Source: an uncultured bacterium (lineage in GTDB: Bacteria > Patescibacteriota > Andersenbacteria > UBA10190 > CAIZMI01). From it: DNA of 64,000 nucleotides. Positions 7,097 to 54,520 of this stretch are shown one piece after another (position 1 is the first letter of the stretch; each line of letters begins with the position of its first letter). Below the pieces are notes generated by a model, which was given only the letters and a program-made list of their open reading frames with translations, made no database searches and had not been told where the DNA came from. Made by a program: the position numbers and the translations under genes. Location of the stretch: NCBI GenBank assembly GCA_903934015.1, contig CAIZMI010000044.1, forward strand, positions 5,027-69,026, written 5' to 3'.

Positions 7097-7861
7097 TTGA
7101 TCGACGCACACTGTCATCTTGATTTAGAACAATACGACGCTGATCGACCGGAGGTTATTGATCGTGCGAAGCAAGCGGATGTAAATACAATTATTAATCC
7201 CGGCGCTGATTGTTTAGGTTTTGAAAAGCCTGTAAAAATTGCTGAGCAATTTGAAAATGTATATGCGGCGATCGGTGTACATCCGGAAGGAATAAATGAG
7301 ATTACGGAAGGATTTTGGTTGCGTTTTTCGGAATTATTACAGCACCCTAAAGTGGTGGCGATTGGTGAAGTCGGATTAGAAAAAAACGATTGGTTACCAT
7401 CACTGGAAGAACAAATTCCCATTATGCTTCGCTTTATCGATTTGGCATTGGTAAACAATAAGCCGATTATTTTTCACGTGCGCTATGTTCATAAAGAGTT
7501 TCAACAGATAATTCGTGAAAAAAATTTAAAATTCAATGCCGTTATTCATAGTTTTACAGGAACGCTTGAGGAGTCGGAATTCTATTTGGCACAAGGATAT
7601 TATTTAGGAATTGCCGGGATGGTGACGTTTCCAAAAGCGGATGAGTTGCGCGCGGTGGTTAAGGAATTACCGCTTGAACGGTTACTGATTGAAACAGATG
7701 CGCCATTCTTAGCGCCACAAGTGGTGCGGGGAAAGCGTAATGAACCGGCACATGTCGTGGAAATCGCAAAAAAGATTGCGGAAATTAAGGGAATTTCGAT
7801 GGAAGAAGTTTTTCAAACAACAGAAGCAAACACGAGAAAATTATTTGGAATCACTCCATAA
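7097..7861 (+). CDS. tatD: TatD family metal-dependent DNase/hydrolase
   Basis: MIDAHCHLD N-terminus and conserved TatD His/Asp pattern. Confidence 0.85.
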   Translation: MIDAHCHLDLEQYDADRPEVIDRAKQADVNTIINPGADCLGFEKPVKIAEQFENVYAAIGVHPEGINEITEGFWLRFSELLQHPKVVAIGEVGLEKNDWLPSLEEQIPIMLRFIDLALVNNKPIIFHVRYVHKEFQQIIREKNLKFNAVIHSFTGTLEESEFYLAQGYYLGIAGMVTFPKADELRAVVKELPLERLLIETDAPFLAPQVVRGKRNEPAHVVEIAKKIAEIKGISMEEVFQTTEANTRKLFGITP

Positions 7862-7950
7862 TCCCTCCCCACCTCCCTTTGAAAAAAGGGAGGAGTCGAC
7901 GCGAACATTCCCTCCTTTATTCAAAGGAGGGCGAGGGTGGATTTGTCCGG
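7861..7950. repeat. REP-like composite element: copy A (AATCCCTCC-N4-CTCCCTTTGAAAAAAGGGAGGAG) plus inverted variant B (CCCTCCTTTATTCAAAGGAGGG..GGTGGATTT). It fills the whole convergent intergenic gap.
   Basis: Perfect hairpin CTCCCTTT-GAA(A/T)AA-AGGGAG. The same element recurs at 12436-12581 and 33347-33385. Confidence 0.8.
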
Positions 7951-12435: not shown

Positions 12436-12581
12436 TTCCCTCCTTTATTCAAAACGCACACGCATCGGCGGTGTTTCGCTGATGCTCAAAGGGCGGGGGT
12501 GGATTTAGTTTATGGGCCTGTTGTTGCATATTGCCAGAATCCCTCCCCTCCTCCCTTTGAATAAAGGGAGGAGACGCGACG
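12436..12581. repeat. REP-like element B (with a ~37-nt insertion in the loop) plus element A, at the rarA/nagB convergent junction
   Basis: TTCCCTCCTTTATTCAAA...AAAGGGCGGGGGTGGATTT and AATCCCTCCCCTCCTCCCTTTGAATAAAGGGAGGAGACGCGACG. Confidence 0.8.
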
Positions 12582-14037: not shown

Positions 14038-14230
14038 AAAAAAAGAGTACTGCGTGGCGGGGAAATGTTCAATATGCGAGTAGTCTTTGCGAGCCATCGC
14101 CAATATCAATTGGCGAGGCGCGGCAATCTCTAAATTAGTATATTGTACTTTGTATATAGTATATGGATTTATTGAGTATATTTGTTTCAGGAAATTGATG
14201 GAATTCAACGGCTATTTCGGAAATGATTTG

Positions 14231-14257
14231 TGGCAATTCATGAATTGCCCCTACGTG
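14231..14257. repeat. palindromic element GGCAATTCATGAATTGCCCCTACGTG (family 2)
   Basis: Perfect 18-nt palindrome. Copies at 17395-17420 and a variant at 24821-24863. Confidence 0.75.
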
Positions 14258-14865: not shown

Positions 14866-17340
14866 ATGCAAGATAAAAAATACCTACCCCGCGAGATAGA
14901 ACCACGCGCGCAGGCGCTTTGGGAAAAATTAGGACTTTATCAGGCTGACTCATCAGAGTCATCCCCGACCGGGATCGGGGATCCCAAAAAAGATCTATAC
15001 GTTTTAGATATGTTCCCTTATCCCTCGGGCGAAGGGCTTCATGTCGGTCACGTCGAGGGTTACACAGCAACGGATATTTACTCACGCTATAAGCGAATGC
15101 GAGGTTTTAATGTTTTGCATCCGATGGGTTGGGATGCTTTTGGTTTGCCCGCCGAAAATACGGCCATAAAATTAAAAACACATCCGCGAAAATTAGTTGA
15201 AAAAAACGTCGCTCGTTTTAAATCGCAACTAAAACGGATGGGCTTTTCGTATGATTGGTCGCGAGAAATTAACACCACTGATCCGGAATACTACAAATGG
15301 ACACAATGGATTTTTCTAAAGCTTTTTCATCTTGGTTTGGCGTATGAGGCAGTGGTGCCAATTAATTGGTGCCCCTCTTGTAAAACAGGATTGGCCAACG
15401 AAGAAGTGGTGGGTGGTCGCTGCGAGCGCTGTAAAACGGAAGTGATCAAAAAAGACATGCGCCAATGGATGTTAAAAATTACGAAATATTCCGAACGTTT
15501 ATTGGAAGGTCTGGATGGTTTGGATTGGCCGGAAGGGATAAAAGAGCTTCAGAGAAATTGGATAGGCCGTAGTGAAGGGGCGGTGGTTTCATTTAAGGGT
15601 GTAGGGGGTAGGGAGTTGGGTGTAGAGACGACTAATATCGATGTTTACACAACTCGTATCGACACGATATTCTCGGGAACATATGTGATTTTGGCGCCTG
15701 AGCATCCTTTTGTAGAGCAAAATAAAGCATGCATTGAAAATTGGGAAGAAGTGGAAAAATATCGTACGGCGACAAAAAGCGTGGCGGAAATTGAGCGAAC
15801 GGCGAAAGAACGCGTTGCCACCGGTGTGCCATTAAAAGGCGTCAGTGTTATCAATCCGGCGACTGGTGAAACAATGCCGGTTTGGATTGCCGATTTTGTT
15901 TTGGCACATTATGGTACCGGCGCGGTTTTTGCCGATGCGCATGACCAGCGTGATTTTGATTTGGCAAAAAAATATAATATTCCATTAAAGGTTTCAATTC
16001 AGCCGGTTGGTGATACTGATTTTTCGAAAATCGAAAATCTGGAAGAATGTTTTGAAGGCGAAGGTGTCTTGGTTAACTCGGAACAATTTAACGGTCTCAC
16101 TTCCGCCGAGGCGCGTCCAGAAATAATATCTTGGCTTCAGGAAAAAGGATTAGCAAAAGCGGAAACAAATTTTAAATTGCGCGACTGGGTTTTTTCGCGA
16201 CAACGTTATTGGGGAGAGCCAATTCCTGTCATTCATTGTGAAAAATGTGGTGTACAGCCGGTGCCGGAAGATCAGTTGCCGGTTTTGCTTCCGGAAGTTG
16301 AAAATTACGAACCAACCGGTACGGGAGAATCGCCATTAGCCGGCATTGAAAGTTGGGTAAATACAATTTGTCCCAAATGTGGCGCACCCGCCAAACGAGA
16401 AACAAATACAATGCCACAGTGGGCGGGAAGTTGTTGGTATTTCTTGCGTTTTGCGGATCCTGCTGATCAAACACTTGGTTTTGAGTGGCAAAAAATGGAA
16501 CGTTGGTTGCCGGTGGATTTATATGTTGGTGGAGCGGAACATGCGGTGCTACATCTTCTGTATTCCCGTTTTTGGATTAAAGCGCTGTATGACGGTGGAT
16601 ATTTGCCTTTTGAAGAGCCATTTAAAGCATTGCGTAATCAAGGAATGATTCAGGGGCCGGATGGTCAAAAAATGAGCAAATCTCGCGGTAATGTGATTAA
16701 TCCCGATGACGTGGTTGATCAGTATGGTGCGGATGCTTTGCGGTTGTTTGAAATGTTCTTGGGGCCGTTTGAACAAAACAAGCCCTGGGACGATAAGGCG
16801 ATTACGGGAGTATCGAGATTCCTTTATCGAATTTGGCGGATGGAAATGTCTGTCGAGTCGGGTGTAGATGTTAAAAAAGCACTTCATAGATTGATTAAAA
16901 AAGTTAGTGATGATATCGAAAGTATGAAATTCAACACCGCAGTTTCATCAATGATGGAGTTTGTAAACTTGATTGAAAAAACAGGGATTACAAAAACCGA
17001 CTTTGAAAAATTTGTTTTAGTATTGGCTCCGTTTGCGCCTCATTTGGCGGAAGACTTGTGGCAGAACATGCAAACCAAGCCATACAAAAATGGTCAATCG
17101 GCAACGGTGCAAGTTTGGCCGGAATTTGATGTCACACTTCTGCAAGACGAAACAATGAACATTGTCATTCAGGTAAATGGAAAAGTTCGTGGCGCGGTTG
17201 AGGTGGAAAAAAATTTACCTGATGAAGCGGTTCAAAAAATTGTTGCGGAACAAGAAGTTGCAAAGAAATGGTTGGATGGGAAGGAAATCGTGAGGGTGAT
17301 TGTGGTCAGTGGGCGTTTGGTAAATTTTGTGGTGAGATAA
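14866..17340 (+). CDS. leuS: leucine--tRNA ligase
   Basis: [16 protein letters not shown] (HIGH region), [10 protein letters not shown]1 editing domain. Start at ATG 14866; track start 14779 is TTG. Confidence 0.92.
15601..15627 (+). repeat. G/T-rich dispersed element GTAGGGGGTAGGGAGTTGGGTGTAGAG (family 4) inside leuS, in-frame
   Basis: Encodes VGGRELGVE between the WIGRSEG and YTTR segments, ~6 aa longer than E. coli LeuRS. Near-identical copies at 20887-20913, 46690-46711, 57567-57589 (reverse). Confidence 0.7.
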
Positions 17341-17394
17341 AATGGTGATGAAAGAAAAAAATTGTAAAACTATCGGGTACACCCGGTCGTTGTA

Positions 17395-17420
17395 GGGGCA
17401 ATTCATGAATTGCCCCTACG
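17395..17420. repeat. palindromic element GGGGCAATTCATGAATTGCCCCTACG (family 2)
   Basis: Between the leuS stop and the next gene start. Confidence 0.75.
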
Positions 17421-19501: not shown

Positions 19502-20212
19502 ATGCAAGCTGTTCTTCCTATAGCTGGAAAAAGTAGTCGAATGGCCAAAAAGTATCAGGGGCCGAAACAATTATTGCCTGTTCTGGGAAAGCCCTTAGTT
19601 GAGCACATGCTTGAATCGTTGCCGGATGCAATTGATGATCTGGTTTTAGTTGTTGGTGGGCCATATGAAAACGATATTCGCGCATATTTTGGCAGTGAGC
19701 ACAATGGCCGTAAGGTTTCATATGCGCGACAAGAGGCGCCATTGGGTCTTGGACACGCAATTCAGCAAGCGAAGGATTTGGTGAAAGGTCGTTTCATTAT
19801 TACGGCGCCGGATGATATTTACAACAAAGCGGATTTGGAAAAAATGATTGCCGAACCGGACATGGCGGCGCTTACTATGAAGCGTGATGATTGGCAAAAT
19901 TTTGGAGTATTTGTTTTGGATGAACAAGGATACATAATACGCATGGTGGAAAAACCGAAAGAGTTTGTTTCACCGTATGTTTCCGCCGGCGCTTGCTATA
20001 TGCTAGATCAAGAATTTTTTGATGTAACGGTTGCTCCGTCTGCGCGTGGTGAAATTGAATTACCGGATATTGTAAATGCACTTATTAATGAAAGAGGTCG
20101 AAAATGTAAAGCGATTACGACAAGTTTTTGGGTGGCAATAAACGATCCTGATCAGTTGGATGTGGCTAATGATATTATGAAGGCGCGTATTGCTAATCAG
20201 ACGACAAATTAA
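19502..20212 (+). CDS. sugar-1-phosphate nucleotidylyltransferase (NTP_transferase domain), paralog 1
   Basis: MQAVLPIAGKSSRM...GLGHAIQQA. Resembles the GlmU/RmlA N-terminal fold. Stop overlaps the next start (TAATG). Confidence 0.65.
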   Translation: MQAVLPIAGKSSRMAKKYQGPKQLLPVLGKPLVEHMLESLPDAIDDLVLVVGGPYENDIRAYFGSEHNGRKVSYARQEAPLGLGHAIQQAKDLVKGRFIITAPDDIYNKADLEKMIAEPDMAALTMKRDDWQNFGVFVLDEQGYIIRMVEKPKEFVSPYVSAGACYMLDQEFFDVTVAPSARGEIELPDIVNALINERGRKCKAITTSFWVAINDPDQLDVANDIMKARIANQTTN

Positions 20213-20904
20213 TGCAAGCTGTTATTTTGGCGGGGGGATTAGGAAAGCGCTTACGTCCTATTACGGAAGATGTTCCAAAACCATTGGTTCCTGTTTGTGG
20301 CAAACCGGTTGTTGAATATACACTCGAGAATTTGCCGGCAGAAATAATTGAGGTGATTTTTGTGATTGGCTATAAGGGCGAAATGATTAAGGATTTATAC
20401 GGTCATAATGCTTTTGGAAAAAAGATTTCTTATGTCGTGCAGGAGCAACAACTGGGCACAGGGCACGCTGTAAAATGTGCCGCTTCGTTAGTGGATATGC
20501 CTTTTATTTTGCTTTACGGTGACGATATTTACGGAAAAGAAGGATTACAGAAGTTGGTGAAGCGTGAATGGGCTTTATTGGCACGTAGGGTGGAACATCC
20601 GGAAAGATTTGGTGTGCTTAAATTAAACGAAGACGGGACGGTTAGTGATATGGTGGAAAAACCGAAAGAATTTATTTCCGATTTGTCCTGGGTGGGTGGG
20701 GCAAAGTTCCAGGCGGAGTTTATGCAAGTTGAAACACCGCTTTCTCAGCGTGGCGAATATGAAGTTCCCGATATGGTGAATGTCTTGATTAAACAAGGAA
20801 AAAAGTTTTATCCGGAATTGACGGATCTTTGGTTGCCAGTAAATACGCTAGAAGAAGTTGCTGAAGCGGAACGGGTGATTAAGGATGTAGGGGGTAGGCA
20901 GTAG
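20212..20904 (+). CDS. sugar-1-phosphate nucleotidylyltransferase, paralog 2
   Basis: MQAVILAGGLGKRLRPIT (GxGxRL signature). The last 6 codons and the TAG stop lie inside a family-4 repeat. Confidence 0.7.
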   Translation: MQAVILAGGLGKRLRPITEDVPKPLVPVCGKPVVEYTLENLPAEIIEVIFVIGYKGEMIKDLYGHNAFGKKISYVVQEQQLGTGHAVKCAASLVDMPFILLYGDDIYGKEGLQKLVKREWALLARRVEHPERFGVLKLNEDGTVSDMVEKPKEFISDLSWVGGAKFQAEFMQVETPLSQRGEYEVPDMVNVLIKQGKKFYPELTDLWLPVNTLEEVAEAERVIKDVGGRQ

Positions 20905-20913
20905 GGTGTAGAG
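20887..20913 (+). repeat. family-4 element GTAGGGGGTAGGCAGTAGGGTGTAGAG providing the C-terminus (..DVGGRQ) and stop codon of the upstream gene
   Basis: One-nt difference from the leuS copy (GAGTTG vs CAGTAG) creates the in-frame TAG. Confidence 0.7.
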
Positions 20914-20940
20914 ATGTTCCGACGACAACCGATCCCGCGC

Positions 20941-20980
20941 CCACTCCCGAAGTGGACCCGCTGGGCCACTTCGGGAGTGG
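20941..20980. repeat. 15-bp-stem hairpin CCACTCCCGAAGTGG-N10-CCACTTCGGGAGTGG
   Basis: Same arms recur at 56882-56983 with a 71-nt structured insert. Confidence 0.6.
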
Positions 20981-21645: not shown

Positions 21646-21668
21646 TGCTCCACCTACGAGGTGGAGCA
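21646..21668. repeat. REP hairpin TGCTCCACCTACGAGGTGGAGCA
   Basis: 6-bp stem CCACCT/AGGTGG with ACG loop. Additional small hairpins lie 20-60 nt upstream. Confidence 0.75.
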
Positions 21669-21696
21669 AAGGTACTCCCTGGTATATGATAATAAT

Positions 21697-22365
21697 ATGC
21701 GGAAAGATATTCTAACTAATAGTGAAGTTTACCATGTGATGAATAAAAGTATCGCTGGATTTAAAATATTTCAGTCAGAGAAGGACTTTTTGCATATGAG
21801 AAACTTGATTAGGTATTACACATCTGCGGGTGTCCGACAAAAGTATTCACAATTTGTACGTGATGTAAATATTCACAAAGATGATATTGAAGAAGAAATC
21901 AATAAACATTTATTGCAGAAAGAAAAAACAGTGCAAATAATTTGTTATTGTTTAATGCCTACGCATTTTCATGTGGTAATAAAACAATTACAGGATCATG
22001 GTATCGAAAAATTCATGTCGGATGTTTCCAATGCATATACACGTCATGTGAATATAAAAATTGAACGAAATGGGCCATTGTGGGTAGGGCGTTTTCAGAG
22101 TGTACTTGTTGATAATGACGATTATCTTACCCATTTAACGCGGTATATCCATCTAAATCCTGTTTCTGCTGGATTAGTTAAAAAAGCCTCTGGTTGGCCC
22201 AATTCTTCTTTTTTGGAGTATGTAAATCGTGATAAGGTGAGGTTTCCGGTGTGCGATTATTCAGGCTTTATTTCTTTTTCGGAAAAACAATACGAAAAAT
22301 TTACAAACGATCACGCGGATTATCAAAAGGAGCTTACACGAATAAAAGCTCTTTGTTTAGAATAA
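21697..22365 (+). CDS. REP-associated tyrosine transposase (RAYT; IS200-like HuH-Y1 family)
   Basis: HuH motif CYCLMPTHFHVVI and Tyr motif RYIHLNPVSAGLVKKASGWPNSSF, which align with E. coli YafM VVLPEHMHCIW / YIYINPVKHGWV..WPFSTF. Start at ATG 21697; track start GTG 21661 lies inside the REP. Confidence 0.8.
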   Translation: MRKDILTNSEVYHVMNKSIAGFKIFQSEKDFLHMRNLIRYYTSAGVRQKYSQFVRDVNIHKDDIEEEINKHLLQKEKTVQIICYCLMPTHFHVVIKQLQDHGIEKFMSDVSNAYTRHVNIKIERNGPLWVGRFQSVLVDNDDYLTHLTRYIHLNPVSAGLVKKASGWPNSSFLEYVNRDKVRFPVCDYSGFISFSEKQYEKFTNDHADYQKELTRIKALCLE

Positions 22366-22382
22366 GGTTTATTACCTTGCAC

Positions 22383-22423
22383 CACCTACGAGGTGGAGCA
22401 AGGTTGCTCCACCTCGTAGGTGG
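22383..22423. repeat. inverted REP doublet CCACCTACGAGGTGG-AGCAAGGTTGCT-CCACCTCGTAGGTGG (BIME-like)
   Basis: 20-2-20 near-perfect palindrome 18 nt after the RAYT stop. Confidence 0.8.
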
Positions 22424-22439
22424 TAAGCAGGTCGTAGAA

Positions 22440-23810: not shown

Positions 23811-23851
23811 AGGGGAAGTGTAGGGAAAAATGGCGAGTGTGACAACCAGCA

Positions 23852-23893
23852 CCGCTCACGGAGCGGAGCAACCTTGCTCCGCTCCGTGAGCGG
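23852..23893. repeat. REP-variant doublet CCGCTCACGGAGCGG-AGCAACCTTGCT-CCGCTCCGTGAGCGG
   Basis: Same architecture as the 22383 doublet (ACG loop, AGCAA-SS-TTGCT spacer) but a different stem. Confidence 0.75.
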
Positions 23894-23924
23894 ACAAAGG
23901 TTCATCGTTCTCAATTTCAGAACT

Positions 23925-24900: not shown

Positions 24901-24983
24901 GCCGGAGTGGCGGAATGGTTTACGCGCACGACTCAAAATCGTGTGACCTTACGGTCATGTGGGTTCGACTCCCTCCTCCGGTA
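24901..24983 (+). tRNA. tRNA-Leu (anticodon CAA), type II with long variable arm
   Basis: 7-bp acceptor stem GCCGGAG/CTCCGGT(GU), anticodon stem CACGA/TCGTG with loop CTCAAAA, variable arm GACC-TTAC-GGTC, T-loop TTCGACT. Overall layout parallels E. coli tRNA-Leu. CCA is not encoded. One U-U mismatch in the T-stem. Confidence 0.8.
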
Positions 24984-24994
24984 CAATAAATATA

Positions 24995-25582
24995 ATGGAT
25001 ACAAGTACTAAACCCAATTTACGAACGCTTGCGTACGTGATTGGTGTTGGTATTGGCGACGGCAACTTATCAAATCCCAACAAAAGAGCGACGCGATTAA
25101 GGATTAGTTGTGATACAAAATATCAGGAACTGATTAGAAAAATTCAAGGGTCTATTAGGGAAATTCTACCGAATAACAAAGTTTCCATTGTAAATAGAAA
25201 CAAGAACTGTATAGATATTAGTTGTTATTCAAATATGTGGGAGGGGTGGCTTGGATGGTCCGCAGGTGGTGGCCCAAAACTTGATCAGAAGGTGAGGGTT
25301 CCTTCGTGGATTATGAAAAAAGAGGAGTTTATTATTCCTTGTTTACGTGGATTATTTGAAACGGATGGATCTGTCTATTTTGATCGTGGATATTTAATGG
25401 CAATGTTTGTGACGACGATTCCGGAATTAGCAGAGGATGTTTTGAACATGACTGCTAAAATCATGATTTCGGCCAAGATGTATGAAATTGAAAAAAAGCC
25501 ACCAAGTCACACAAGATACAATATCCGTGTTTCGAAGAATGTTTCAGATTTCGTTAATTTGATTGGAATACAAAAGAGGTAA
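24995..25582 (+). CDS. LAGLIDADG homing endonuclease (two-motif, single-chain)
   Basis: LAYVIGVGIGDGNL and LRGLFETDGSVYF motifs. Starts 12 nt after the tRNA-Leu 3' end. Track start 24959 overlaps the tRNA. Confidence 0.8.
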   Translation: MDTSTKPNLRTLAYVIGVGIGDGNLSNPNKRATRLRISCDTKYQELIRKIQGSIREILPNNKVSIVNRNKNCIDISCYSNMWEGWLGWSAGGGPKLDQKVRVPSWIMKKEEFIIPCLRGLFETDGSVYFDRGYLMAMFVTTIPELAEDVLNMTAKIMISAKMYEIEKKPPSHTRYNIRVSKNVSDFVNLIGIQKR

Positions 25583-30574: not shown

Positions 30575-30653
30575 TGAAACTAATTCTTAATGTTTATCGG
30601 GGATTGCTTCGCCCGCGCACCACAAGGGTGCGGGGCTCGCAAAGACTAATGCT

Positions 30654-33169: not shown

Positions 33170-33346
33170 TTTTTCTTAGCAAAGAAAAACAATCCCCCAT
33201 AGTCGCGTGGTCGCGAAGCGACTTTACGCGACGACGGGGGATGATTTCGCGATATTTTTGTTACACTAAATATAATATAAAGAAGCATTTTGTATCGATA
33301 TATCGATACAAAATTATATTATAGTGGAAATTGGGGTTTATGGACT

Positions 33347-33385
33347 AAATCCCTCCTAACCTCCCTTTGAATAAAGGGAGGAAAC
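33347..33385. repeat. REP-like element A (AAATCCCTCCTAACCTCCCTTTGAATAAAGGGAGGAAAC)
   Basis: Third copy; at the convergent junction downstream of mfd. Confidence 0.75.
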
Positions 33386-33393
33386 ACTCGCGC

Positions 33394-33422
33394 CTCTACG
33401 CCCTACACGCTACCACCTACAC
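33394..33422 (-). repeat. family-4-like element (minus-strand reading GTGTAGGTGGTAGCGTGTAGGGCGTAGAG) supplying the mfd stop codon
   Basis: The first TAG of the element is the mfd stop (33417-33419). Confidence 0.6.
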
Positions 33423-36400
33423 TTTTTTCTTCGCCTTGCCCGTTACGCGCTCTTTTTCGCGAGCTTCTGTTATGAGATGCAATGTGTGTTCTACTTTGCT
33501 TAAATAATCCTGGCCTAGTTCGGTAACAGGTATCGACATTGATGCGCCGGTGAAAGTCCAACGCGGATTATCGGCAATCGCGGTGTAAGCAATTGTTGGC
33601 GTAAGGCCGTCTTGTAAAGTTAATGTAATACGCAAATCTTTTTGCGCGGTCATATCGCGTTTGCTGGCCATAGGGTTTGTGGACGTAACAATGCCATTTA
33701 CATTTGCGATTGCGGCTAATAGTTTCAACTTAAGCACTTGGAAGAAAGTGATTCCCGCTTCCGGAAGTGGTCCATATTGTTCTTCCAGTGCATGGCGAGT
33801 AGAAACTAAATCTTTCATTGAACGAATAGAGCCGGTTCTTGTATAAGCTTGCAAGCGTTCTGCCGTATTTGGAATATATTCTTCCGGCAAATAGGCCTTA
33901 ATCGGCAAATCAATTTGTACGTCTGTAATAGTTTGTTCGGCTTGGCCTTTTCGTAACCGTTCCACTTCTTCATTTAGTAATTCACCAAAAAGATGCACAC
34001 CAACAGCTTTGATTGTGCCATGTTGTTCTTTGCCGAGCAGGTTTCCGGCGCCACGGATTTCTAAATCACGCAAAGCGAGCGTCCAGCCACTGCCCAGTTC
34101 TACTGCTTCCAAAAGTGCCGTTAAGCGTTTGCGGGCTTCAAACGGCAAGCGTCCTTGGTGGTACAAGAAATAGGCGAAGGCTTGTTTGTTTCCACGACCA
34201 ACGCGACCCCGTAACTGGTATAAATCCGACAAACCAAAAGACGGTGAATCAAAAACAACCAGCGTATTAACATTTGGCAAATCAATACCGTTTTGAATAA
34301 TTGTTGAGCAAACAAGAATATCGGCTTTTTTGGTATCAAATAATTCCATCACTTCCATTAGTTTTTGTTCATGCATTTGACCGTGACCCACCACAACGCG
34401 TGCTTTTGGCATGATTTTTCGAATGCGTTCGGCGGCCGCTTCGATAGTTTCTACGCGATTCCATAAAACGTAGGCTTGACCCCCACGTTCTAATTCTGTT
34501 TGTAGTGCTTTTTTAACCAGTTCATCGTTTTCACGCGTTACTTTGGTGATGACAGGTTGGCGACCACCCGGTGGTGTAGCAATTACGGAAAGAGAACGTA
34601 GTCCTGAAAGAGCCATATTTAGTGTACGTGGAATTGGTGTAGCGGAGAGGGAAAGAACATCAACGCTTGCGCGCATTCTGCGCAAACTTTCTTTTTGCTC
34701 GACACCGAATTTTTGTTCTTCGTCGATGATCATTAAACCTAGAGATTTGAATTTTACATCTTCTGATAAAAGGCGATGGGTGCCAATAACAATATCAACT
34801 TCGCCTGTTACTAATTTTCGTACCACCTCATTTTGCTCAGAAGCTGTCTGGAAGCGAGAAATTAAGGCACAACGGGAATTAAACGGTTTCAGGCGTTCCT
34901 GGAAGGTGTCGAAATGCTGTTGTGCTAAAAGTGTTGTGGGAGACAGGACGGCTACTTGGCGACCAAAGTTCACTGACTTAAAAGCAGCACGGATGGCAAC
35001 TTCTGTTTTGCCAAAACCAACATCACCGCAAACCAAACGATCCATTGGTTGGGCGCGTTCCATGTCCTTGGTTACTTCGCGGATAGCCGTTTCTTGGTCG
35101 TGTGTTTCGTCGTATGGGAAAGAATCAGCAAGCGACCGTTCTGCTTCCGTTTCCGGTGGAAAAGCGGTTCCGGATTGTGTTTCGCGCGCGGCATAAAGCT
35201 GTAACAATTCTTTGGCTAGATCGGCTGTTTCTTGGCGGATTTCTTTTGTTGTTGATTCCCATTCGCTACCGCCCAAGCGATGAATAACCGGATTAGCGGC
35301 CCCAATGTAGGCGGTGACTTTGTAGGACATTTCCACTGGAACAAAAAGTTTGTCGGAGGCGGCATATTCCAAAACTAGGTAGTCGCGAGCGGAATCGCGC
35401 AATTCTTTTCGCTCAATTCCACGGAATCGCGCAATGCCATGGTCGCGATGAACAACATAACCACCGGCGGAAAAACGGCGCGAGTAAGCCATGCCACTAT
35501 CCCATGAAAGCGGGTCTTCTTCGGCGGATTCACCAATGTCGGCATCAGTGAATATAGCGAAGGCGTCTTTAGTGTTAATAAAACCACGGGCATCCGCCGC
35601 TGTTTCGGCGGGAATGATTTCCAGGTTTTCGTTTTGCGGTAAAGTGACGCGCGTTGCTTCTGGGCGTGCAGTCAATATGATTACTTTATTTTTTTTGAGT
35701 GTTTCTGAAATGAGTAGTTTGAATTTTTCCATATCCCCGCCACATGGGGCCGGCTCGCGGATTTCGGAAATGCCGGAAAATGGTTGCAGGAGCATGTCCG
35801 GTTTTGTTGTGTTTCCAATTAGCGCTCCTTCTTCGGCGACGATGTATGCTGATTCGATGATTTTTTGGAAGTTTACCGGCAATGTTGGCGGAAGGGCCAG
35901 GGGAAAAATGTTTCTTGTTCGTCCGTCGGTTTGAGAAATTCTCTCGAATATTTTATTTGTATCGTTATTATTGCTATTGCGAGGCGCGAGAGATTTGATG
36001 TGGTCAATTTCATTTCCTAAAAACTCAATGCGCATTGGAGCGTCAGAATGAAATGGAAAGATGTCTACTATTCCGCCATGGTGCGAAAACGTGGCCGGTT
36101 CTTCGGAAACTCGCTCTTCCGTGTAGCCAAAGTTTATTAATTTTTCAATAAGAATTGTGGGAGAGAGAGTCTGTTTTTCTTTTAGTTGTAAAACTCCAAG
36201 GTCGGAGGTGAGTTTTGGAGACGGTTGTTGCAGTTCTTTTTGTGTTGCTAAAATCAAACGCGGGTGATTGTTTTTCAATGCCGTAATTGCTTGCCAGTAG
36301 GCCCTGAGTCGAGGAGTGGGAATATCACCGGATCTTTCTTGGGGTAGGAGGACGGGTAAGATTGTTAACGGATAATTGGTGGGATACTCTGTTTCACCAA

Positions 36401-36623
36401 TTTTTACTTGTTTCCAAAAAGCGATTGAACGAGAAATGCCCGGTAATGTAATAGTGGATCTTTCTACGAGTACGACAACAATTGGTCTACCCGATTCTGA
36501 AATCGGAAGACCTGCTAAAAATAGGGGAAGGATGCTCTCTGGAAGAGTCGGCGCTTCGATTTGTTTATCTTTTTCGACGGCGCTCCAAAGGTCCTGTAAT
36601 ACAGAGATTCGCGGGATATTCAT
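33417..36623 (-). CDS. mfd: transcription-repair coupling factor
   Basis: 1068 aa. UvrB-homology N-terminus, RNAP-interacting domain, superfamily-2 translocase motifs (GFGKTEVA, DEEQKFG), TRG motif. Confidence 0.92.
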   Translation of the reverse strand: MNIPRISVLQDLWSAVEKDKQIEAPTLPESILPLFLAGLPISESGRPIVVVLVERSTITLPGISRSIAFWKQVKIGETEYPTNYPLTILPVLLPQERSGDIPTPRLRAYWQAITALKNNHPRLILATQKELQQPSPKLTSDLGVLQLKEKQTLSPTILIEKLINFGYTEERVSEEPATFSHHGGIVDIFPFHSDAPMRIEFLGNEIDHIKSLAPRNSNNNDTNKIFERISQTDGRTRNIFPLALPPTLPVNFQKIIESAYIVAEEGALIGNTTKPDMLLQPFSGISEIREPAPCGGDMEKFKLLISETLKKNKVIILTARPEATRVTLPQNENLEIIPAETAADARGFINTKDAFAIFTDADIGESAEEDPLSWDSGMAYSRRFSAGGYVVHRDHGIARFRGIERKELRDSARDYLVLEYAASDKLFVPVEMSYKVTAYIGAANPVIHRLGGSEWESTTKEIRQETADLAKELLQLYAARETQSGTAFPPETEAERSLADSFPYDETHDQETAIREVTKDMERAQPMDRLVCGDVGFGKTEVAIRAAFKSVNFGRQVAVLSPTTLLAQQHFDTFQERLKPFNSRCALISRFQTASEQNEVVRKLVTGEVDIVIGTHRLLSEDVKFKSLGLMIIDEEQKFGVEQKESLRRMRASVDVLSLSATPIPRTLNMALSGLRSLSVIATPPGGRQPVITKVTRENDELVKKALQTELERGGQAYVLWNRVETIEAAAERIRKIMPKARVVVGHGQMHEQKLMEVMELFDTKKADILVCSTIIQNGIDLPNVNTLVVFDSPSFGLSDLYQLRGRVGRGNKQAFAYFLYHQGRLPFEARKRLTALLEAVELGSGWTLALRDLEIRGAGNLLGKEQHGTIKAVGVHLFGELLNEEVERLRKGQAEQTITDVQIDLPIKAYLPEEYIPNTAERLQAYTRTGSIRSMKDLVSTRHALEEQYGPLPEAGITFFQVLKLKLLAAIANVNGIVTSTNPMASKRDMTAQKDLRITLTLQDGLTPTIAYTAIADNPRWTFTGASMSIPVTELGQDYLSKVEHTLHLITEAREKERVTGKAKKKV

Positions 36624-36728: not shown

Positions 36729-37283
36729 TCAATTGGTGAAAAATTTATGTTTTGCGTCTAAAAATATTTTATCTAATTCCACTATTTCATTATTTGAAAA
36801 CTTCTCCAACACAAATATGTCGGTTGTCTGTGGCGCCGGTACCGGACCGATGCCGATTCGAAGGCGCCAAAAGTTGGATGTTCCAAGGCAGTCGATAATT
36901 GATTGCACGCCTTTGTGGCCGGCAGACGAAATTTCTTTTTGTAATCTAATTTCCCCTAAATTAATGTCCTTATCGTCGTGTAAGACGAGGAGTTGTTCTG
37001 GTTGTAATTGTTCTTTTTCTATAAGATAGGCAACACTTGTTCCGGATTCGTTCATGAAAGTGTGCGGGAAGACTAGAAGGTGGGGGGTGGGGTGTAGGTG
37101 GTAGGTGCCTCGTGATATCATTGCGTTCGAGTATTTGTCATGTTTGAATTCAGGGAAAATCCATTGTTTTTGCAGACAATCTAATAATAATGCACCTGCG
37201 TTGTGGCGAGTATTTTTGTATTCGTCTCCCGGATTTCCCAGTCCAACGATTATTCGAATGTCATCCAGAATAAATTCGGACAT
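36729..37283 (-). CDS. pth: peptidyl-tRNA hydrolase
   Basis: IVGLGNPGDEYKNTRHNAG N-terminus, FMNESG, HNG. Contains ~9 extra residues (TYHLHPTPH) encoded by a family-4-like repeat. Confidence 0.85.
   Translation of the reverse strand: MSEFILDDIRIIVGLGNPGDEYKNTRHNAGALLLDCLQKQWIFPEFKHDKYSNAMISRGTYHLHPTPHLLVFPHTFMNESGTSVAYLIEKEQLQPEQLLVLHDDKDINLGEIRLQKEISSAGHKGVQSIIDCLGTSNFWRLRIGIGPVPAPQTTDIFVLEKFSNNEIVELDKIFLDAKHKFFTN
37080..37110 (-). repeat. family-4-like G/T-rich element inside pth, in-frame (GTGGGGGGTGGGGTGTAGGTGGTAGGTGCC on + strand)
   Basis: Encodes GTYHLHPTPH, absent from the E. coli Pth alignment at this position. Confidence 0.5.
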
Positions 37284-38868: not shown

Positions 38869-38965
38869 GTAGGTATAAGCATATTACTTTGGCGAGTGAG
38901 AAGCAAATTGAAACTTGACCGTCGTCTTTGCGAGGCGCTGCAGTGCCGAAGCAATCTGACGGTGT

Positions 38966-39041
38966 AAAATTTCTAATTTCTAATACCTAATGAAATTCCA
39001 AAAGTCCAATTCGATGTTTTAAAATTATTACATTTCATTAG
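38966..39041. repeat. AT-rich inverted-repeat element (TTCTAATTTCTAATACCTAATGAAAT ... ATTTCATTAG)
   Basis: Related copy at 54418-54520. Both lie in promoter-proximal intergenic DNA. Confidence 0.45.
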
Positions 39042-45439: not shown

Positions 45440-46684
45440 ATGTCAAAAGATGAAATATTGGTAGGTTTGGATGTCGGAACAACAACAACAAGGGTTGTTG
45501 TTGCGGTTCGATCTCCTGAAAATGAAAAACCGTCTGTTCTTGGAATTGGTGTTGTTGCCTCGTCTGGAATTCAGAAAGGTGTTGTGACTGACGTTGAAGA
45601 AACAATCCAATCTGTAAGCAAGGCATTGGATCAAGCAGAACAGATGGCCGGAATTCCGATTGAGCGTGCCACTGTCAGTATTGGTGGGGCGCATATTTCC
45701 TCGCAAAACAGTCGTGGTGTAATTGCTGTTTCAAGAGCGGATGGTGAAATAAGCGAAGATGATATCACGCGGGTAGTAAACGCTGCGCAAGCTATTTCAA
45801 TACCATCCAATCGTGAAATACTTCATGTCGTACCGCAACAGTTTGTTGTTGATAGTCAGGATGGAATAACCGATCCGTTGGGGATGACCGGTGTTAGATT
45901 GGAAGTGGACGCTCATATTATTGAAGGTTCCGCGCCGTTTATTAAAAATTTGACGAAGTGTGTTTATCAAGCGGGTGTTACGGTGGGGGATTTGGTGTAC
46001 GCTCCGTTATCTGCCGCCAAGGCGGTTCTTTCCAAGAGACAGCGCGAATTGGGTGTAATTCTAATCGACTTAGGCGGTGGTACAACCAATATCGCTGTTT
46101 TTGAAGAAAATCGTTTGCTTCAGACGGCAACTTTACCGATTGGTTCAATGCACATTACAAATGATATCGCAATTGGTCTTCGTTCATCTATTGATGTGGC
46201 GGAAAAAATTAAAGTAGAACTTGGTACGGCACTGCCGGATGAAGTAAAGAAAACACAGGTAATAAACTTAAAGCATATGGATGAACAAGAAGAAGAAACG
46301 GAAATACCACGACGTCACGTTGCGGAAATTATTGAGGCGCGGTTGTCTGAAATATTTGCAATGGTAAATAAAGAATTAAAATCAGTTCAGCGGTCCGGGC
46401 TTTTGCCGGCCGGAGTTGTGCTTACCGGTGGTGGGTCAAAAATGCACGGTGTTGTTGAATTGGCAAAAAAAGAATTGCGATTACCTGCGCAGTTGGGTTA
46501 CCCGCAACCATTGCCTGGAATTGTTGATGAAATTAATGATCCGGCATGGGCAACAGCGATGGGATTAATCTTTCATACTATGGATAATCAACAAGCAAAG
46601 CCCCGTTCATCAATGCCAAATCTTTCTTCGGTTGGTCCAACGGTAACAAAAATTCGGGGCTGGTTTCGGTCGTTAATGCCTTGA
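45440..46684 (+). CDS. ftsA: cell division protein FtsA
   Basis: Actin-fold. N-terminus ILVGLDVGTTTTRVVVA; DLGGGTTNIAVF. Confidence 0.9.
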   Translation: MSKDEILVGLDVGTTTTRVVVAVRSPENEKPSVLGIGVVASSGIQKGVVTDVEETIQSVSKALDQAEQMAGIPIERATVSIGGAHISSQNSRGVIAVSRADGEISEDDITRVVNAAQAISIPSNREILHVVPQQFVVDSQDGITDPLGMTGVRLEVDAHIIEGSAPFIKNLTKCVYQAGVTVGDLVYAPLSAAKAVLSKRQRELGVILIDLGGGTTNIAVFEENRLLQTATLPIGSMHITNDIAIGLRSSIDVAEKIKVELGTALPDEVKKTQVINLKHMDEQEEETEIPRRHVAEIIEARLSEIFAMVNKELKSVQRSGLLPAGVVLTGGGSKMHGVVELAKKELRLPAQLGYPQPLPGIVDEINDPAWATAMGLIFHTMDNQQAKPRSSMPNLSSVGPTVTKIRGWFRSLMP

Positions 46685-46689
46685 TGAGA

Positions 46690-46711
46690 GGGTGTAGGGA
46701 GTTGGGTGTAG
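46690..46711 (+). repeat. family-4 element fragment GGGTGTAGGGAGTTGGGTGTAG just after the ftsA stop
   Basis: Matches the 3' part of the leuS copy. Confidence 0.6.
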
Positions 46712-46858
46712 TTTTCTAAAGATAATACCGAAATTACGAATATAATTATATGTCAATCGTCAATGTCCATTGATGATTTTTAGTTATGGGAGGTTCAAAA
46801 GTTGTTTATAATATTTCTAGAATTTTACACCCTAAACGCTAACCCCCATATCCTTCCA

Positions 46859-49883: not shown

Positions 49884-50747
49884 ATGAAGCGCAGGATAAT
49901 ATTTTTGATACTGGTGGGGACGTTGGTGTTTGGTATGGCCTTGTTTCTGCAAAAATCAAGCGACGGCAAAGTTTTTGTTAGCTTTATGAATGTAGGGCAA
50001 GGCGATACGATTTTCTTGCGTCAGGGAAATTTTGATCTTCTGGTGGACGGTGGACCGGATTTATCGGTTTTACAACGTCTTGGAGAAACGCGTCCTGCAT
50101 GGGATCGGAAAATTGACGTAATTGTATTGACACATCCGGATCAAGATCATCTTGGTGGATTATTATATGTTGTAAATAAATATAAGGTTGGGGCGGTTGT
50201 ATTGCCAAAAATTATCGAGAAGACAAAAAATTATCGAATATTCCTCCAAAGTATAATGGATAAACAAATTCCATTAGTTTTTGCCGAGGCGGGGCAAACA
50301 ATCATTTATAATGACATTAAATTAGAAATTTTTTCGCCTGATGAAAAACTGCTTTCTTGGGGAAAAACAAACATTAACAACGCTTCGGTGGTTTCGAGAT
50401 TAACTATTCCGGGGGTTTCGGCGTTGCTCACCGGAGACGTGGAGGCGCCGGCAGAAAATTATTTGGCAAAAAAATATAATACGATCCTCAAGTCGGATAT
50501 TTTGAAAGTCGGTCATCATGGCAGTAAGACATCGACAACTGCCGGTTTCTTGGGTGTTGTTAAGCCGAAAATGGCAATTATTTCGGTAGCGGCAAAAAAT
50601 ATGTTTGGACACCCAAATCCCTTAACACTAAAAAGACTTGGCGGAGTAAAAGTTGAAAGGACGGATAGGATGGGAACGATCACTTTGGAAAGTGACACGA
50701 AAACCAGAGAAGTTAAGTTGAGGTGCGAGAAGGAATGCGCACTTTAA
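49884..50747 (+). CDS. secreted/membrane-anchored metallo-beta-lactamase fold protein (ComEC C-terminal-domain-like, free-standing)
   Basis: N-terminal signal anchor. HPDQDH motif (HxHxDH). GHHGS. Confidence 0.75.
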   Translation: MKRRIIFLILVGTLVFGMALFLQKSSDGKVFVSFMNVGQGDTIFLRQGNFDLLVDGGPDLSVLQRLGETRPAWDRKIDVIVLTHPDQDHLGGLLYVVNKYKVGAVVLPKIIEKTKNYRIFLQSIMDKQIPLVFAEAGQTIIYNDIKLEIFSPDEKLLSWGKTNINNASVVSRLTIPGVSALLTGDVEAPAENYLAKKYNTILKSDILKVGHHGSKTSTTAGFLGVVKPKMAIISVAAKNMFGHPNPLTLKRLGGVKVERTDRMGTITLESDTKTREVKLRCEKECAL

Positions 50748-50950
50748 TTTTCAATTATCAATTTTACAATTTTCAAATAATTTCCAATGTTCAATGTTCA
50801 AAAATCTCGACGCAATTTTGATAATAGATAATTGAACATTATTTGGAAATTGGTCATTGAGAATTGAAAATTTTGGGTGTAAATAGTTACGATAATTCCT
50901 GAATATTCATATTTGTCAAATATTCGGTTTTCCCCTATATTGTTACCCAT

Positions 50951-54417: not shown

Positions 54418-54520
54418 CTAGTATCTAATTCCTAATTTCTAATGAAATGCACAAATGTCAATATAGTGTGTTGAATATTGGAAATTTCATTAGAAATTAG
54501 ATATTAGTAATTAGAAATTT
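54418..54520. repeat. AT-rich ~95-nt imperfect palindrome (CTAATTCCTAATTTCTAATGAAAT ... ATTTCATTAGAAATTAG...)
   Basis: Related to the 38966-39041 element. Confidence 0.45.

Follow-up and report, generated by a model that had tools for sequence, protein, structure and literature searches.

The leucyl-tRNA synthetase (LeuRS, 824 aa) encoded by leuS (14866-17340, plus strand) of a CPR bacterium carries a short G/T-rich repeat within its reading frame, which raises the question of what this element is and how it came to lie inside an essential gene. A first-pass annotation of the 64-kb stretch of DNA analysed here (referred to as the window) had described a 27-nt unit dispersed over six sites and had likened it to Rickettsia palindromic elements (RPEs). 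All six sites were found to be present, and the repeat is indeed dispersed and lies inside two essential genes, leuS and pth (peptidyl-tRNA hydrolase), with the reading frame preserved in both. Exact matches to the consensus proposed in that annotation were located at 15601-15627 and 20887-20913, with none expected (100 shuffles), a core of 18-20 nt was common to the copies at 46690-46711 and 57566-57590 (reverse), and looser relatives were identified at 33394-33422 (reverse) and 37079-37107. The 27-nt unit itself did not stand, as the actual element is a tandem array of the 7-nt unit GTAGGGN, repeated three to four times and usually ending in GTAGAG.

Scanning with (GTAGGGN)3GTAG, allowing up to six mismatches, identified six clear arrays (A to F) and one weak array (46825-46849, minus strand) in the window, with shuffled sequences giving 0.43 matches. 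Self-similarity of the window yielded four matches at a lag of 7 nt and none at lags of 4-6 and 8-12, and lag 7 was the sole enriched tandem period in the window and in five related loci alike. TRF reported a period of 7 with 4.3 copies at both 15596 and 20882, the number of units among the window arrays being 3-4.3. The window copies are 25-32 nt long and have no self-complementarity.

Array A (15596-15627, plus strand) lies inside leuS, is composed of GGGTGTA, GGGGGTA, GGGAGTT, GGGTGTA and a terminal GAG, and encodes (G)VGGRELGVE. Its region is identical at 33/36 positions to array B (20879-20914, plus strand), which is found at the 3’ end of an NTP-transferase gene (20212-20904) with a strong hairpin downstream (20941-20980). 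Array C (46687-46711, plus strand) begins 3 nt past the stop codon of ftsA (46682-46684), and the weak array, which shows six mismatches and is situated in the ftsA-ftsZ spacer, is its inverted partner, the two having a weak predicted long-range pairing (z = -2.8). Array D (57561-57592, G-rich strand minus) is intergenic, on the opposite strand to rpsL and 97 nt upstream of its ATG (57689), shortly before a promoter-like TTGACT-17-TAAAGT, and is 92% complementary to array B. The mfd gene (33417-36623, minus strand) has array E (33389-33427, minus strand) at its 3’ end, followed by the hairpin CCTCCCTTTATTCAAAGGGAGG, while array F (37079-37107, plus strand) runs antisense inside pth (36729-37283, minus strand, 184 aa), the pth strand carrying a C-rich array that encodes TYHLHPTPH. 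A perfect palindrome, GTAGGGG-CAATTCATGAATTG-CCCCTAC, was also identified 52 nt past the leuS stop codon (17392-17419), each foot of which equals one heptamer unit; a degenerate copy of it was seen at 14227-14254.

Among the window copies, array A alone possesses four G3 tracts and a predicted G-quadruplex (G4), both of which were also found for the in-ORF arrays of relatives. The G4 was considered as a unifying feature of the GTAGGGN family and was rejected, since arrays B, C, D and E do not possess four G3 tracts. An Rfam gathering search of the window returned tRNAs and no other known RNA family, and a scan for consensus promoters and terminators around leuS and array B was uninformative. 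Contigs with an identical LeuRS (L001-L005) were all 100% identical to the window, and a metagenome scan with GTAGGSAGTWGGGTGTAGAG returned 16 contigs that belong to other organisms, this genome not being represented.

The first-pass annotation had proposed that the repeat was an insertion in both genes. For leuS this was borne out, with the loop being seven amino acids longer than in the closest orthologues without the array. LeuRS orthologues at 87-89% identity were found to lack these seven residues (array A being absent from P0002 and P0004), and the orthologues without the repeat do not carry the same peptide segment. Furthermore, orthologue P0003 (locus L006) was found to carry an array of four GGGTACA units at the same site. 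Because closely related orthologues lack the insert and another has a different unit in its place, the sequence comparison confirms array A as an insertion at a dynamic site. A second site in LeuRS carries arrays in P0002, P0003 and P0007 and none in the window, and the patterns of presence at the two sites are incongruent; arrays have therefore been gained or lost repeatedly. The empty site of locus L007 (AAGGGGCAGGGC) already resembles 1.5 units, so that growth or contraction in situ fits as well as insertion, and the leuS site showed no target-site duplication and no defined boundaries of an element. In the AlphaFold model of LeuRS the segment (V246-E254) is placed in a loop between strands 235-246 and 258-262, with a block pLDDT of 71-75 against approximately 90 in the flanks, and the length of this loop is highly variable across CPR. 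The leuS copy most likely has no function and is tolerated as it is in frame, free of stop codons and in a permissive loop.

For pth the proposed insertion did not hold as a net gain, as the loop is equal in length to that of Escherichia coli Pth, being two amino acids longer than in the nearest relatives without an insert. In two relatives (L126 and L127), pth was found to contain an in-frame palindrome of approximately 95 nt consisting of a G-array, a spacer and a C-array, with a predicted DNA hairpin of dG -36 kcal/mol (z = -8.4). In alignment, the units of array F correspond one to one to those in the C arm of this palindrome, and pth of the window thus retains the C arm alone. In the model of Pth the segment is predicted to form a turn between strands 54-59 and 68-73, both encoded segments mapping to a loop or turn between strands.

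RPEs are dispersed selfish palindromes of approximately 100-150 nt that form a long hairpin and can lie in frame inside essential genes. The arrays described here are like them in residing in frame in essential genes and in adding a peptide at a permissive surface site, but judged against this description the window copies are set apart by their shorter length, their non-palindromic structure, their tandem 7-nt units and their occurrence in another lineage. The parallel drawn in the first-pass annotation accordingly survives as a likeness of function and not of form, and is at its best in the hairpin-forming pth palindrome of the relatives. We know of no reason to expect a sequence relation between the arrays and RPEs.

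Outside the two essential genes the arrays are associated with gene ends, three of them (B, C and E) overlapping the stop codon of the upstream gene or starting within 3 nt of it. Since 7 is coprime to 3, the frame is maintained by three units (21 nt) and every frame encodes one and the same repeat of seven amino acids, with the result that TAG recurs at intervals of 21 nt in a GTAGGGN array read in sense. Arrays at gene ends thereby supply the stop codon, this being the TAG of the third unit in array B (20902-20904) and that of the first unit in array E, while inside leuS the single in-frame TAG is TTG. The copies at leuS and 20887 had been described as differing by one base; two were found to differ (G/C at position 13 and T/A at position 17), while the observation that TTG replaces the only in-frame TAG was correct, the TAG of the copy at 20887 being the actual stop codon of the NTP-transferase gene. 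G-rich arrays directly past the mfd stop codon were also found in three relatives, with the unit changed. The arrays of this CPR lineage are thus located mainly at gene ends and occasionally in frame in protein surface loops. This positioning extends across phyla, for loci picked by the motif itself and with genes approximated by long ORFs: among the matches listed, 19% of 174 array clusters begin within 10 nt past the stop codon of an ORF in sense orientation with 120 or more codons, compared with 1.3% of random positions, and the array’s own TAG is the stop codon in 46 further cases. Arrays B and E lie between a stop codon and a hairpin, as do arrays of several other phyla among the matches listed.

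The same heptamer arrays were identified in other CPR among the matches listed, namely in Kerfeldbacteria, Buchananbacteria and Peregrinibacteria. In the genome scan, 111 of the 117 loci among the matches listed possess true arrays of at least three units, the chance expectation for single matches being approximately 70 by our own arithmetic; the window’s own genome is absent among these matches. The mode of unit number across phyla was four among the matches listed, with the lower bound of three set by our own detection rule. Units with a period of seven in the window and its relatives comprise GTAGGGN, GGGGACA, GGGTACA, GTATATN, TGAATAA, ATTAGAA and AATTTTC, AT-rich arrays being found at equivalent positions in relatives, and in locus L133 GGGTACA and GGGTGTA units occur together within arrays. 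Across loci the unit is specific to the genome, orthologous sites in relatives change units in concert, and the same locus (LeuRS, pth and mfd sites) differs in array length or sequence between close relatives. Where arrays are paired, 36 pairs are oriented G-then-C and 6 C-then-G among the matches listed. No paper on GTAGGGN arrays was found in the part of the literature covered.

Heptanucleotide repeats (STRR) of cyanobacteria were reportedly described by Mazel in 1990. G-rich heptameric repeats have been characterized in Xanthomonas (GGGAATC) and Nostoc (GGGGAYT), with a preference for four units, for the sense strand near stop codons and for convergent pairs (Rehm et al. 2015, PMC4692102), long heptanucleotide simple-sequence repeats are attributed to Mrazek 2007 as cited in PMC4679880, and numerous further genomes besides those of cyanobacteria and Xanthomonas contain members of the class (PMC4692102; PMC4679880). 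The window arrays resemble this class in their tandem 7-nt unit with a G tract, their approximately four units and their mostly intergenic location, and the arrays seen here also share its convergent inverted pairs and its differences in length or sequence at the same site in close relatives. Points of difference are the TAG within the GTAGGGN unit, the host, which is a CPR bacterium of small genome size, the presence of two copies in frame in essential genes and the inability of most window copies to form a three-tetrad G4. The window element is therefore a member of the known G-rich heptanucleotide repeat class, here in CPR, and not an RPE. Another comparison is provided by the TAACTGA direct repeats of Beggiatoaceae, cyanobacteria and Bacteroidetes (PMC4679880), which similarly form short arrays (2-6 units) of one heptamer with stop triplets in the unit and have a patchy cross-phylum distribution suggesting horizontal spread; unlike GTAGGGN, their unit is a different one, they are located just upstream of start codons and their proposed role is translational control (PMC4679880).

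Pairing of the arrays points to a second component. Among the matches listed, all seven G-then-C pairs with a spacer of 370-670 nt enclose a PF05635-like ORF, the sources being Kerfeldbacteria, Buchananbacteria, Phycisphaeraceae, Saprospiraceae and Brevundimonas/Caulobacteraceae. A PF05635 ORF enclosed by repeat arms is seen in the close relative L126 and in the CPR loci L029 and L057, and the relative GCA_030647555.1 has a PF05635-type gene bounded by inverted heptamer arrays between dprA and topA, a cassette absent at that place in the window and L127. Heptamer-armed cassettes elsewhere include units without GTAG. The link was also visible in a sample chosen blind to the repeat, consisting of 14 plasmid-borne four-helix-bundle genes: the flanks of ten were complementary beyond every shuffle, and for 11 a period of 7 was the strongest periodicity in a flank. 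A location of the cassettes within rRNA genes was considered and rejected, as none was in an rRNA gene; they lie between protein genes or inside their operons. Solo arrays can be close to identical to cassette arms, with 30/32 positions shared between a solo array of a relative (L007:21159-21190) and an arm approximately 25 kb away on the same contig. Array A is identical at 31/33 positions to the 5’ arm of the Buchananbacteria cassette (L057), which is suggestive and not proof of descent, given the low complexity of a sequence with approximately four free positions. No PF05635-like ORF was detected in the 64-kb window with tblastn; array A is without a partner arm, and the pth array equals one arm of the palindrome that is complete in relatives.

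Counterparts of these cassettes are known in the intervening sequences (IVS) of 23S rRNA. That of Coxiella burnetii consists of an S23p ORF within a 28-bp terminal-repeat stem cut by RNase III, with GACAGAT heptamers that vary in number between strains (PMC4990558), and a Leptospira IVS with an S23p ORF is attributed to Ralph and McClelland 1993 as cited in PMC4990558. The IVS, regarded as selfish and possibly mobile, shares with the cassettes of L126, L029 and L057 terminal inverted repeats that form a stem around a PF05635 ORF, and tandem heptamers in the arm, whose number is strain-variable in the IVS. They differ in their surroundings, rRNA in one case and protein genes in the other; array A differs further, lacking both an ORF and a second arm. 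A connection with PF05635 cassettes is unreported for the Xanthomonas and Nostoc repeats (PMC4692102), and in the literature covered no general link between four-helix-bundle genes and heptamers was found beyond Coxiella.

With moderate confidence, we favour the explanation that a family of small selfish elements gave rise to the arrays, which would be copied or derived from the inverted-repeat arms of such elements, the leuS copy being a solo arm and slippage reshaping the arrays. They would then not be independent products of local slippage. The full element would comprise a purine-rich heptamer array, a PF05635 (S23p/four-helix-bundle, Avd-like) gene and a complementary array, which is the architecture of the 23S rRNA IVS with its RNase III-cleaved stem, while ORF-less palindromes (the pth insert of the relatives) and solo arms (the leuS copy) would have arisen from this full element by reduction. 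Thereafter slippage may alter the number of units and homogenise them, and concerted unit change at orthologous sites is explained more simply by slippage than by re-insertion. Both the direction of descent, from arm to solo array, and any mobility are what we infer from these observations, and we read the leuS copy as a solo arm that is probably tolerated in a surface loop. A wider proposal is advanced only tentatively and with some doubt, namely that a minimal and widespread mobile element may have STRR-type arrays as its cis-acting ends and, as its sole cargo, an S23p/four-helix-bundle (Avd-like, PF05635) gene, with ORF-less palindromes and solo arms as its MITE-like derivatives.

One alternative, which we regard as unlikely, is that the arrays are pure simple-sequence repeats generated in place by slippage with a 7-nt step, selection purging harmful sites and the PF05635 link being secondary, for example because repeat stems evolve easily. 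A polymerase-footprint idea for such a step is attributed to Mrazek 2007. Slippage would account for the enrichment of period 7 regardless of unit sequence, the concerted unit changes, the mixed arrays of L133 and the proto-repeat GGGGCAGGGC in the empty LeuRS site, and the heptamer copy number of Coxiella differs between strains (PMC4990558). However, slippage alone predicts neither the 36 to 6 excess of G-then-C pairs nor the sharp peak at 0-10 nt past stop codons (among the matches listed). It is also at odds with the genome-specificity of the unit, with loci of one genome sharing the unit, the order of variant units and the irregular GTAGAG end (A and B at 33/36; C and D in their core), and with the near-identity of a solo array to a cassette arm approximately 25 kb away.

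It is quite unlikely, in our estimation, that the arrays are under selection as a cis element, either at the 3’ end of mRNA or in DNA, acting as a G4, as a UAG-N4 protein site or as a spacer between stop codon and terminator that affects termination, stability or translation, with the in-ORF copies being accidental. A periodic UAG-N4 site for an oligomeric RNA-binding protein would follow a HutP-like logic. The location between stop codon and hairpin agrees with such a role, as do the 15-fold excess right after stop codons in sense orientation (among the matches listed), the presence of the mfd 3’ array in three relatives despite its changed unit, and the G4 predicted for array A and the in-ORF arrays of relatives, and related repeats form a G4 in vitro and prefer four units (PMC4692102). 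Against it, array A alone of the window copies has four G3 tracts, AT-rich arrays at equivalent positions in relatives imply that the G4 is not a general rule, many genes are without arrays, no candidate binding protein was identified and Rehm et al. reported no regulatory role (PMC4692102).

The window also encodes an intact RAYT-like Y1 transposase (21661-22365) with HUH (HFH) and RYIHxNP motifs, situated 750 nt downstream of array B, and mobilisation of the arrays as REP-type elements, with GTAG of the unit as the REP head, was judged very unlikely. The gene has a score of 65 bits with NCBIfam REP_Tyr_transpos, short of the curated cut-off (80), and E = 4.7e-7 against TnpArep (PDB 4er8). 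Like REP/REPIN sequences (PMC3116915; PDB 4er8), the arrays are short repeats at gene ends containing GTAG, which is the most conserved tetranucleotide of the unit, the 28-nt palindrome past leuS fits the REP form, and arrays abut GTAG-plus-hairpin repeats in a Saprospiraceae genome. A REP is, however, defined by a 5’ GTAG and an imperfectly palindromic sequence of 20-40 nt, whereas the arrays are tandem and non-palindromic, two being intragenic. Furthermore, RAYT genes are flanked by their cognate repeats, and the gene in the window is flanked not by heptamer arrays but by a different hairpin family (GCTCCACCTACGAGGTGGAGCAA and doublets), the signature expected of a cognate REP. A relative in which the in-ORF arrays are devoid of GTAG also has the gene, in synteny and as a single copy, cassettes elsewhere use GTAG-less units, and a search for RAYT homologues close to arrays, covering 0.96 Mb of cross-phylum loci, found none (a weak test, among the matches listed). 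The notion that the leuS segment is an ordinary ancestral loop with repeat-like codons by chance can practically be dismissed, for although this loop is length-variable in LeuRS generally, its identity to array B includes synonymous and non-coding positions, it is absent from orthologues at 87-89% identity, a different heptamer array occupies the same place in one orthologue and the chance expectation of the motif is zero.

Taken alone, the finding is a modest one, which provides a known class of repeats with an example from CPR. The comparison of orthologues reveals that, across short spans of evolution, arrays can be written into and erased from loops at the surface of essential enzymes, and a simple coding rule emerges in which three units keep the frame and the unit determines whether a stop codon appears. 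Heptamer arrays and PF05635 genes are each abundant and each unexplained, and in several phyla they look, in the present analysis, like two components of a single element. If the wider proposal is true, an element previously known only as an intervening sequence of 23S rRNA would have derivatives that settle directly past stop codons, in operons and in frame in the surface loops of essential proteins. This would include the streamlined genomes of CPR, with LeuRS and Pth being remodelled between relatives that are near-identical in those proteins. Should the cassette link hold, where heptanucleotide repeats come from and what S23p proteins do would become one directly testable question.

The G/T-rich motif was found in the window as GTAGGGGGTAGGGAGTTGGGTGTAGAG at 15601-15627 and GTAGGGGGTAGGCAGTAGGGTGTAGAG at 20887-20913, with none expected from 100 dinucleotide-preserving shuffles. 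The four further sites named in the first-pass annotation were likewise found, namely 46690-46711 and 57566-57590 (reverse), which have an 18-20-nt core in common, and looser versions at 33394-33422 (reverse) and 37079-37107. The first two copies were identified to differ by two bases rather than the one originally counted. Read in register, all copies are runs of a 7-nt unit, typically GTAGGGN: copy A (in leuS) reads GGGTGTA GGGGGTA GGGAGTT GGGTGTA GAG, copy B (at the end of an NTP-transferase gene) GTAGGGG GTAGGCA GTAGGGT GTAGAG, and copy E (at the end of mfd) GTAGGTG GTAGCGT GTAGGGC GTAGAG. Scanning the window for (GTAGGGN)3GTAG gave six loci and one weak locus, compared to 0.43 in shuffles. 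A lag scan returned four matches at period 7 and none at lags 4-6 and 8-12, and related loci (~136 kb) gave 17 lag-7 matches versus 0 at eight other lags, with the same result in each locus; the TRF result on the window was consistent with period 7. Contigs of the same species were all identical to the window.

Gene identities in the window were assigned with Pfam and homologue searches. Copy A lies within leuS (14866-17340), copy B extends over the 3’ end of the NTP-transferase gene, with its in-frame TAG (20902-20904) serving as the stop codon, and copy C begins 3 nt past the ftsA stop. Copy D (minus strand) is situated 97 nt upstream of the rpsL ATG (57689), just upstream of a promoter-like site, copy E (minus strand) overlaps the mfd stop, which is the TAG of its first unit, and copy F is inside pth in antisense orientation. 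Hairpins come after copies B and E. As 7 and 3 have no common factor, the frame is regained after three units and the identical 7-aa repeat is read in every frame, so that the openness of an array is set by its unit: sense GTAGGGN holds one TAG per 21 nt, and its complement and GGGKACA units are stop-free. This coding rule explains why genes end in sense GTAGGGN arrays (B and E), why the sole in-frame TAG position of copies A and B, which share a reading frame, reads TTG in leuS, and why relatives have GGGKACA, or else the C-rich strand, in their arrays within ORFs. A dispersed hairpin family, AATCCCTCC..CCTCCCTTTGAAWAAAGGGAGG, was also observed at gene 3’ ends (7856-7898, 7908-7944, 12534-12576 and 33344-33386), one member being directly past array E.

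Alignment of 40 LeuRS homologues showed shorter sequences at the copy A site in P0002 (KGQGNDDIEVYTTR; 89% alignment identity) and P0004 (KGQGNPDVGVYTTR), making the window LeuRS longer by 7 aa (21 nt, three units) and bearing out the original proposal that this segment is an insertion. At the same site, homologue P0003 (87%) carries an insert with the DNA GGGTACA GGGTACA GGGGACA GGGTACA, a heptamer array of a different unit from copy A. A second LeuRS loop was found to hold GGGGACA arrays in P0002, P0003 and P0007, with none in the window or P0004; this array (L007 11994-12029 and the matching L006 site, both loci of relatives) is in frame in the anticodon-binding region, reading LQGTGDRGQ. 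The four nearest LeuRS sequences are roughly equidistant (87-89%), and the incongruent presence at the two sites indicates repeated gain or loss of arrays. In the AlphaFold model, V246-E254 occupies the stretch from strand 235-246 to strand 258-262 that leads into the editing domain, with confidence falling at this block (pLDDT 71-75), and other CPR sequences of the alignment have 20-200 aa inserted in the same loop. Judged from the predicted structures, the array sites of LeuRS and Pth are permissive. The leuS array is regarded with high confidence as a real, recent and reversible insertion. Past leuS, a 28-nt perfect palindrome, GTAGGGGCAATTCATGAATTGCCCCTAC, with one heptamer unit per foot was observed at 17392-17419, and a degenerate copy lies upstream of the gene (14227-14254).

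The pth segment had been described as absent from canonical Pth. This needs correcting: the window loop equals that of E. coli Pth in length and exceeds that of the nearest insert-free relatives (P0124, P0126 and P0127) by only 2 aa. The segment is modelled by AlphaFold as a beta-hairpin turn (T60-P67), and three other relatives have ~20 additional residues in this loop. The insert of relatives L126 (GCA_030647555.1) and L127 consists of a G arm (GGGTACA GGGGACA GGGGACA GGGGACA), a 30-nt spacer and a C arm (TCTACCC TCTACCC TGTCCCC TGTACCC), together forming an in-frame palindrome that, when folded as single-stranded DNA, gave a dG of -36 kcal/mol (z = -8.4). The window array matches the C arm unit by unit with both junctions in common, thus pth of the window retains a single arm of a palindromic element, with 54 nt fewer than the palindrome-bearing relatives and the frame intact. 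An AT-rich palindrome at 54413-54519 (half copy 38967-38991; DNA hairpin z = -6.6) likewise possesses heptamer-array arms (CTAATTN ... AATTAGN) with no ORF within, but unlike the G-rich family its pyrimidine-rich arm comes first.

Past the mfd stop, where copy E lies in the window, L126 was found to carry TAG AGT GTAGGGG GTAG and L127 TAA GGGTACA GGGATCA GGGTACA GG. L127 and L006 belong to one metagenome in which the mfd end, LeuRS and Pth all use GGGTACA, indicating that the unit is genome-specific and that loci change their unit together. AT-rich heptamer arrays (GTATATN, TGAATAA, ATTAGAA) occupy equivalent places in the lineage, and further period-7 arrays were observed in the window at 14136-14164, 50746-50801 and 54115-54144 (units TAGTATA, AATTTTC x8 and ATACAGC). 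These arrays of other units show that heptamer arrays are generally abundant in the lineage.

Additional repeats were observed. The dispersed element TCTTTGCGAG-hairpin-GAAGCAATC(TC), present in the window (38926-38965, ~30580-30650 on the minus strand and 14113-14131) and in L007, L126 and L127, is kept across relatives, often with AT-rich heptamer arrays (GTATATA or AATTTCT) coming after it, and an ~85-nt element (TTTCCTATAA...TTGTATATAGTATATGGA) is repeated after at least four genes in a relative. The 18-nt end (54006-54023) of tRNA-Pro (54006-54077, minus strand) is duplicated exactly at 53808-53825, 198 nt apart, which may be an integration footprint at the tRNA. A LAGLIDADG-type ORF (24959-25582) starts inside or directly past tRNA-Leu (24901-24984). 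At least five tandem 138-nt units (~80% identical; 63322-64000) continue past the window end and probably encode a repeat-domain protein. A 47-nt direct repeat (56755-56801 and 57457-57503; 89% identical, 702 nt apart) comprises a terminator-like T-run together with sequence that follows it.

When 185,579 species genomes were scanned with GTAGGSAGTWGGGTGTAG, at least 117 stretches matched, with ~70 single matches expected by chance by our own arithmetic, and true arrays of at least three units were present in 111 loci among the matches listed. Their hosts, among these matches, include cyanobacteria, Saprospiraceae, Gemmatimonadales, Planctomycetota, Acidobacteriota, Nitrospirota, Caulobacteraceae, Omnitrophota and three CPR classes. 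Within this motif-selected cross-phylum set, with genes approximated as long ORFs (sense ORFs of at least 120 codons), 19% of 174 array clusters among the matches listed begin at most 10 nt past a sense-ORF stop, compared to 1.3% of random positions, an excess that fades past 50 nt; the array’s own TAG is the stop in 46 additional cases, and the G-rich array comes first in 36 pairs versus 6 of opposite order. The G-rich heptameric repeats known from Xanthomonas and Nostoc favour arrays of four units, are placed in sense orientation at most 50 bp from the stop or in antisense orientation upstream, make up 70-75 convergent pairs and differ between close relatives, with a function that is not known (PMC4692102). 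The window arrays resemble these in anatomy and placement, and the element is therefore assigned with high confidence to this known class as a heptanucleotide array, in place of the Rickettsia palindromic elements to which it was originally likened. In many genomes, long SSRs are most often heptanucleotides, for which polymerase slippage has been proposed as the origin, according to the summary of Mrazek 2007 in PMC4679880.

PF05635, whose other names are 23S rRNA intervening-sequence protein, S23p and ‘four helix bundle protein’, is related to Avd, an accessory protein of DGRs (PMC10053308). An ORF of this family was identified inside all seven G-then-C pairs with a 370-670-nt spacer among the matches listed (Kerfeldbacteria L029, Buchananbacteria L057, Phycisphaeraceae L025, Saprospiraceae L040 and three Caulobacteraceae), and no rRNA genes were found in these loci. 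L126 (19027-19465) has a 129-aa PF05635 (23S_rRNA_IVP) gene between dprA and topA, flanked by heptamer arrays of TGAATAA type in inverted orientation, of which the first starts at the dprA stop codon and includes the inserted gene’s start codon; the PF05635 gene is absent from this site in the window and L127. As a bias control, plasmid four-helix-bundle genes were chosen by protein search only and 14 were read (L145-L158): flank complementarity was above every shuffle in ten, and period 7 was the strongest flank periodicity in eleven. Their units vary widely (GTAGGGA in Nostoc edaphicum; elsewhere GGCAGAG, GTCAGGA, AAAAGCT, GGTTCAA and GGACAGA), and several operon-internal cassettes with heptamer-array arms were found between nrdB/nrdA in N. 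edaphicum, cas10/cmr3 in Picosynechococcus, cas6/cas4 in Pseudanabaena and two toxin-secretion genes in Calothrix. The Coxiella 23S IVS combines an S23p ORF with GACAGAT heptamers, which vary in number from strain to strain, and with a terminal stem of 28 bp that RNase III cuts (PMC4990558); the cassettes are similar in ORF, terminal stem and heptamers, but differ in that the seven pair loci contain no rRNA gene.

Solo arrays match cassette arms: L007:21159-21190 and the L126 cassette arm, which share a contig, agree at 30 of 32 positions, and copy A agrees with the L057 cassette’s 5’ arm at 31 of 33; no PF05635 gene was found within the 64-kb window. We lean towards the leuS array being a solo arm of an IVS-type cassette family, a reading weakened by the low complexity of the arrays, by the PF05635-free window and by the failure to find a target-site duplication at leuS. 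Changes in unit number and the concerted change of unit would then occur by slippage, and the leuS copy would be without function of its own. Slippage in situ as the sole origin draws on the empty LeuRS site (AAGGGGCAGGGC), which already resembles 1.5 units and is a weakness of derivation from a cassette, but is considered rather unlikely. More doubtful still is a selected 3’-end element, for example a G4 or protein-binding site, as only copy A among the window copies has four G3 tracts.

An intact RAYT-like Y1 transposase gene (21661-22365, plus strand), with HFH and RYIHxNP motifs and syntenic in a relative, was observed in the window; its score against NCBIfam REP_Tyr_transpos was 65 bits, short of the cut-off of 80, and PDB 4er8 was matched at E = 4.7e-7. 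Hairpins by this gene (21646-21678, 22374-22424 and 23851-23901; GCTCCACCTACGAGGTGGAGCAA and doublets linked by AGCAA-SS-TTGCT) give it the look of a REPIN/RAYT system, here in the genome of a CPR bacterium. Mobilisation of the arrays by this transposase is highly improbable, since its flanking hairpins are of a different family, and chance resemblance can practically be dismissed. Derivation of the leuS array from a cassette arm is retained as the preferred reading, and a general connection of cassettes with arrays, which may have had prior mention in the literature, goes beyond the known class of heptamer repeats.
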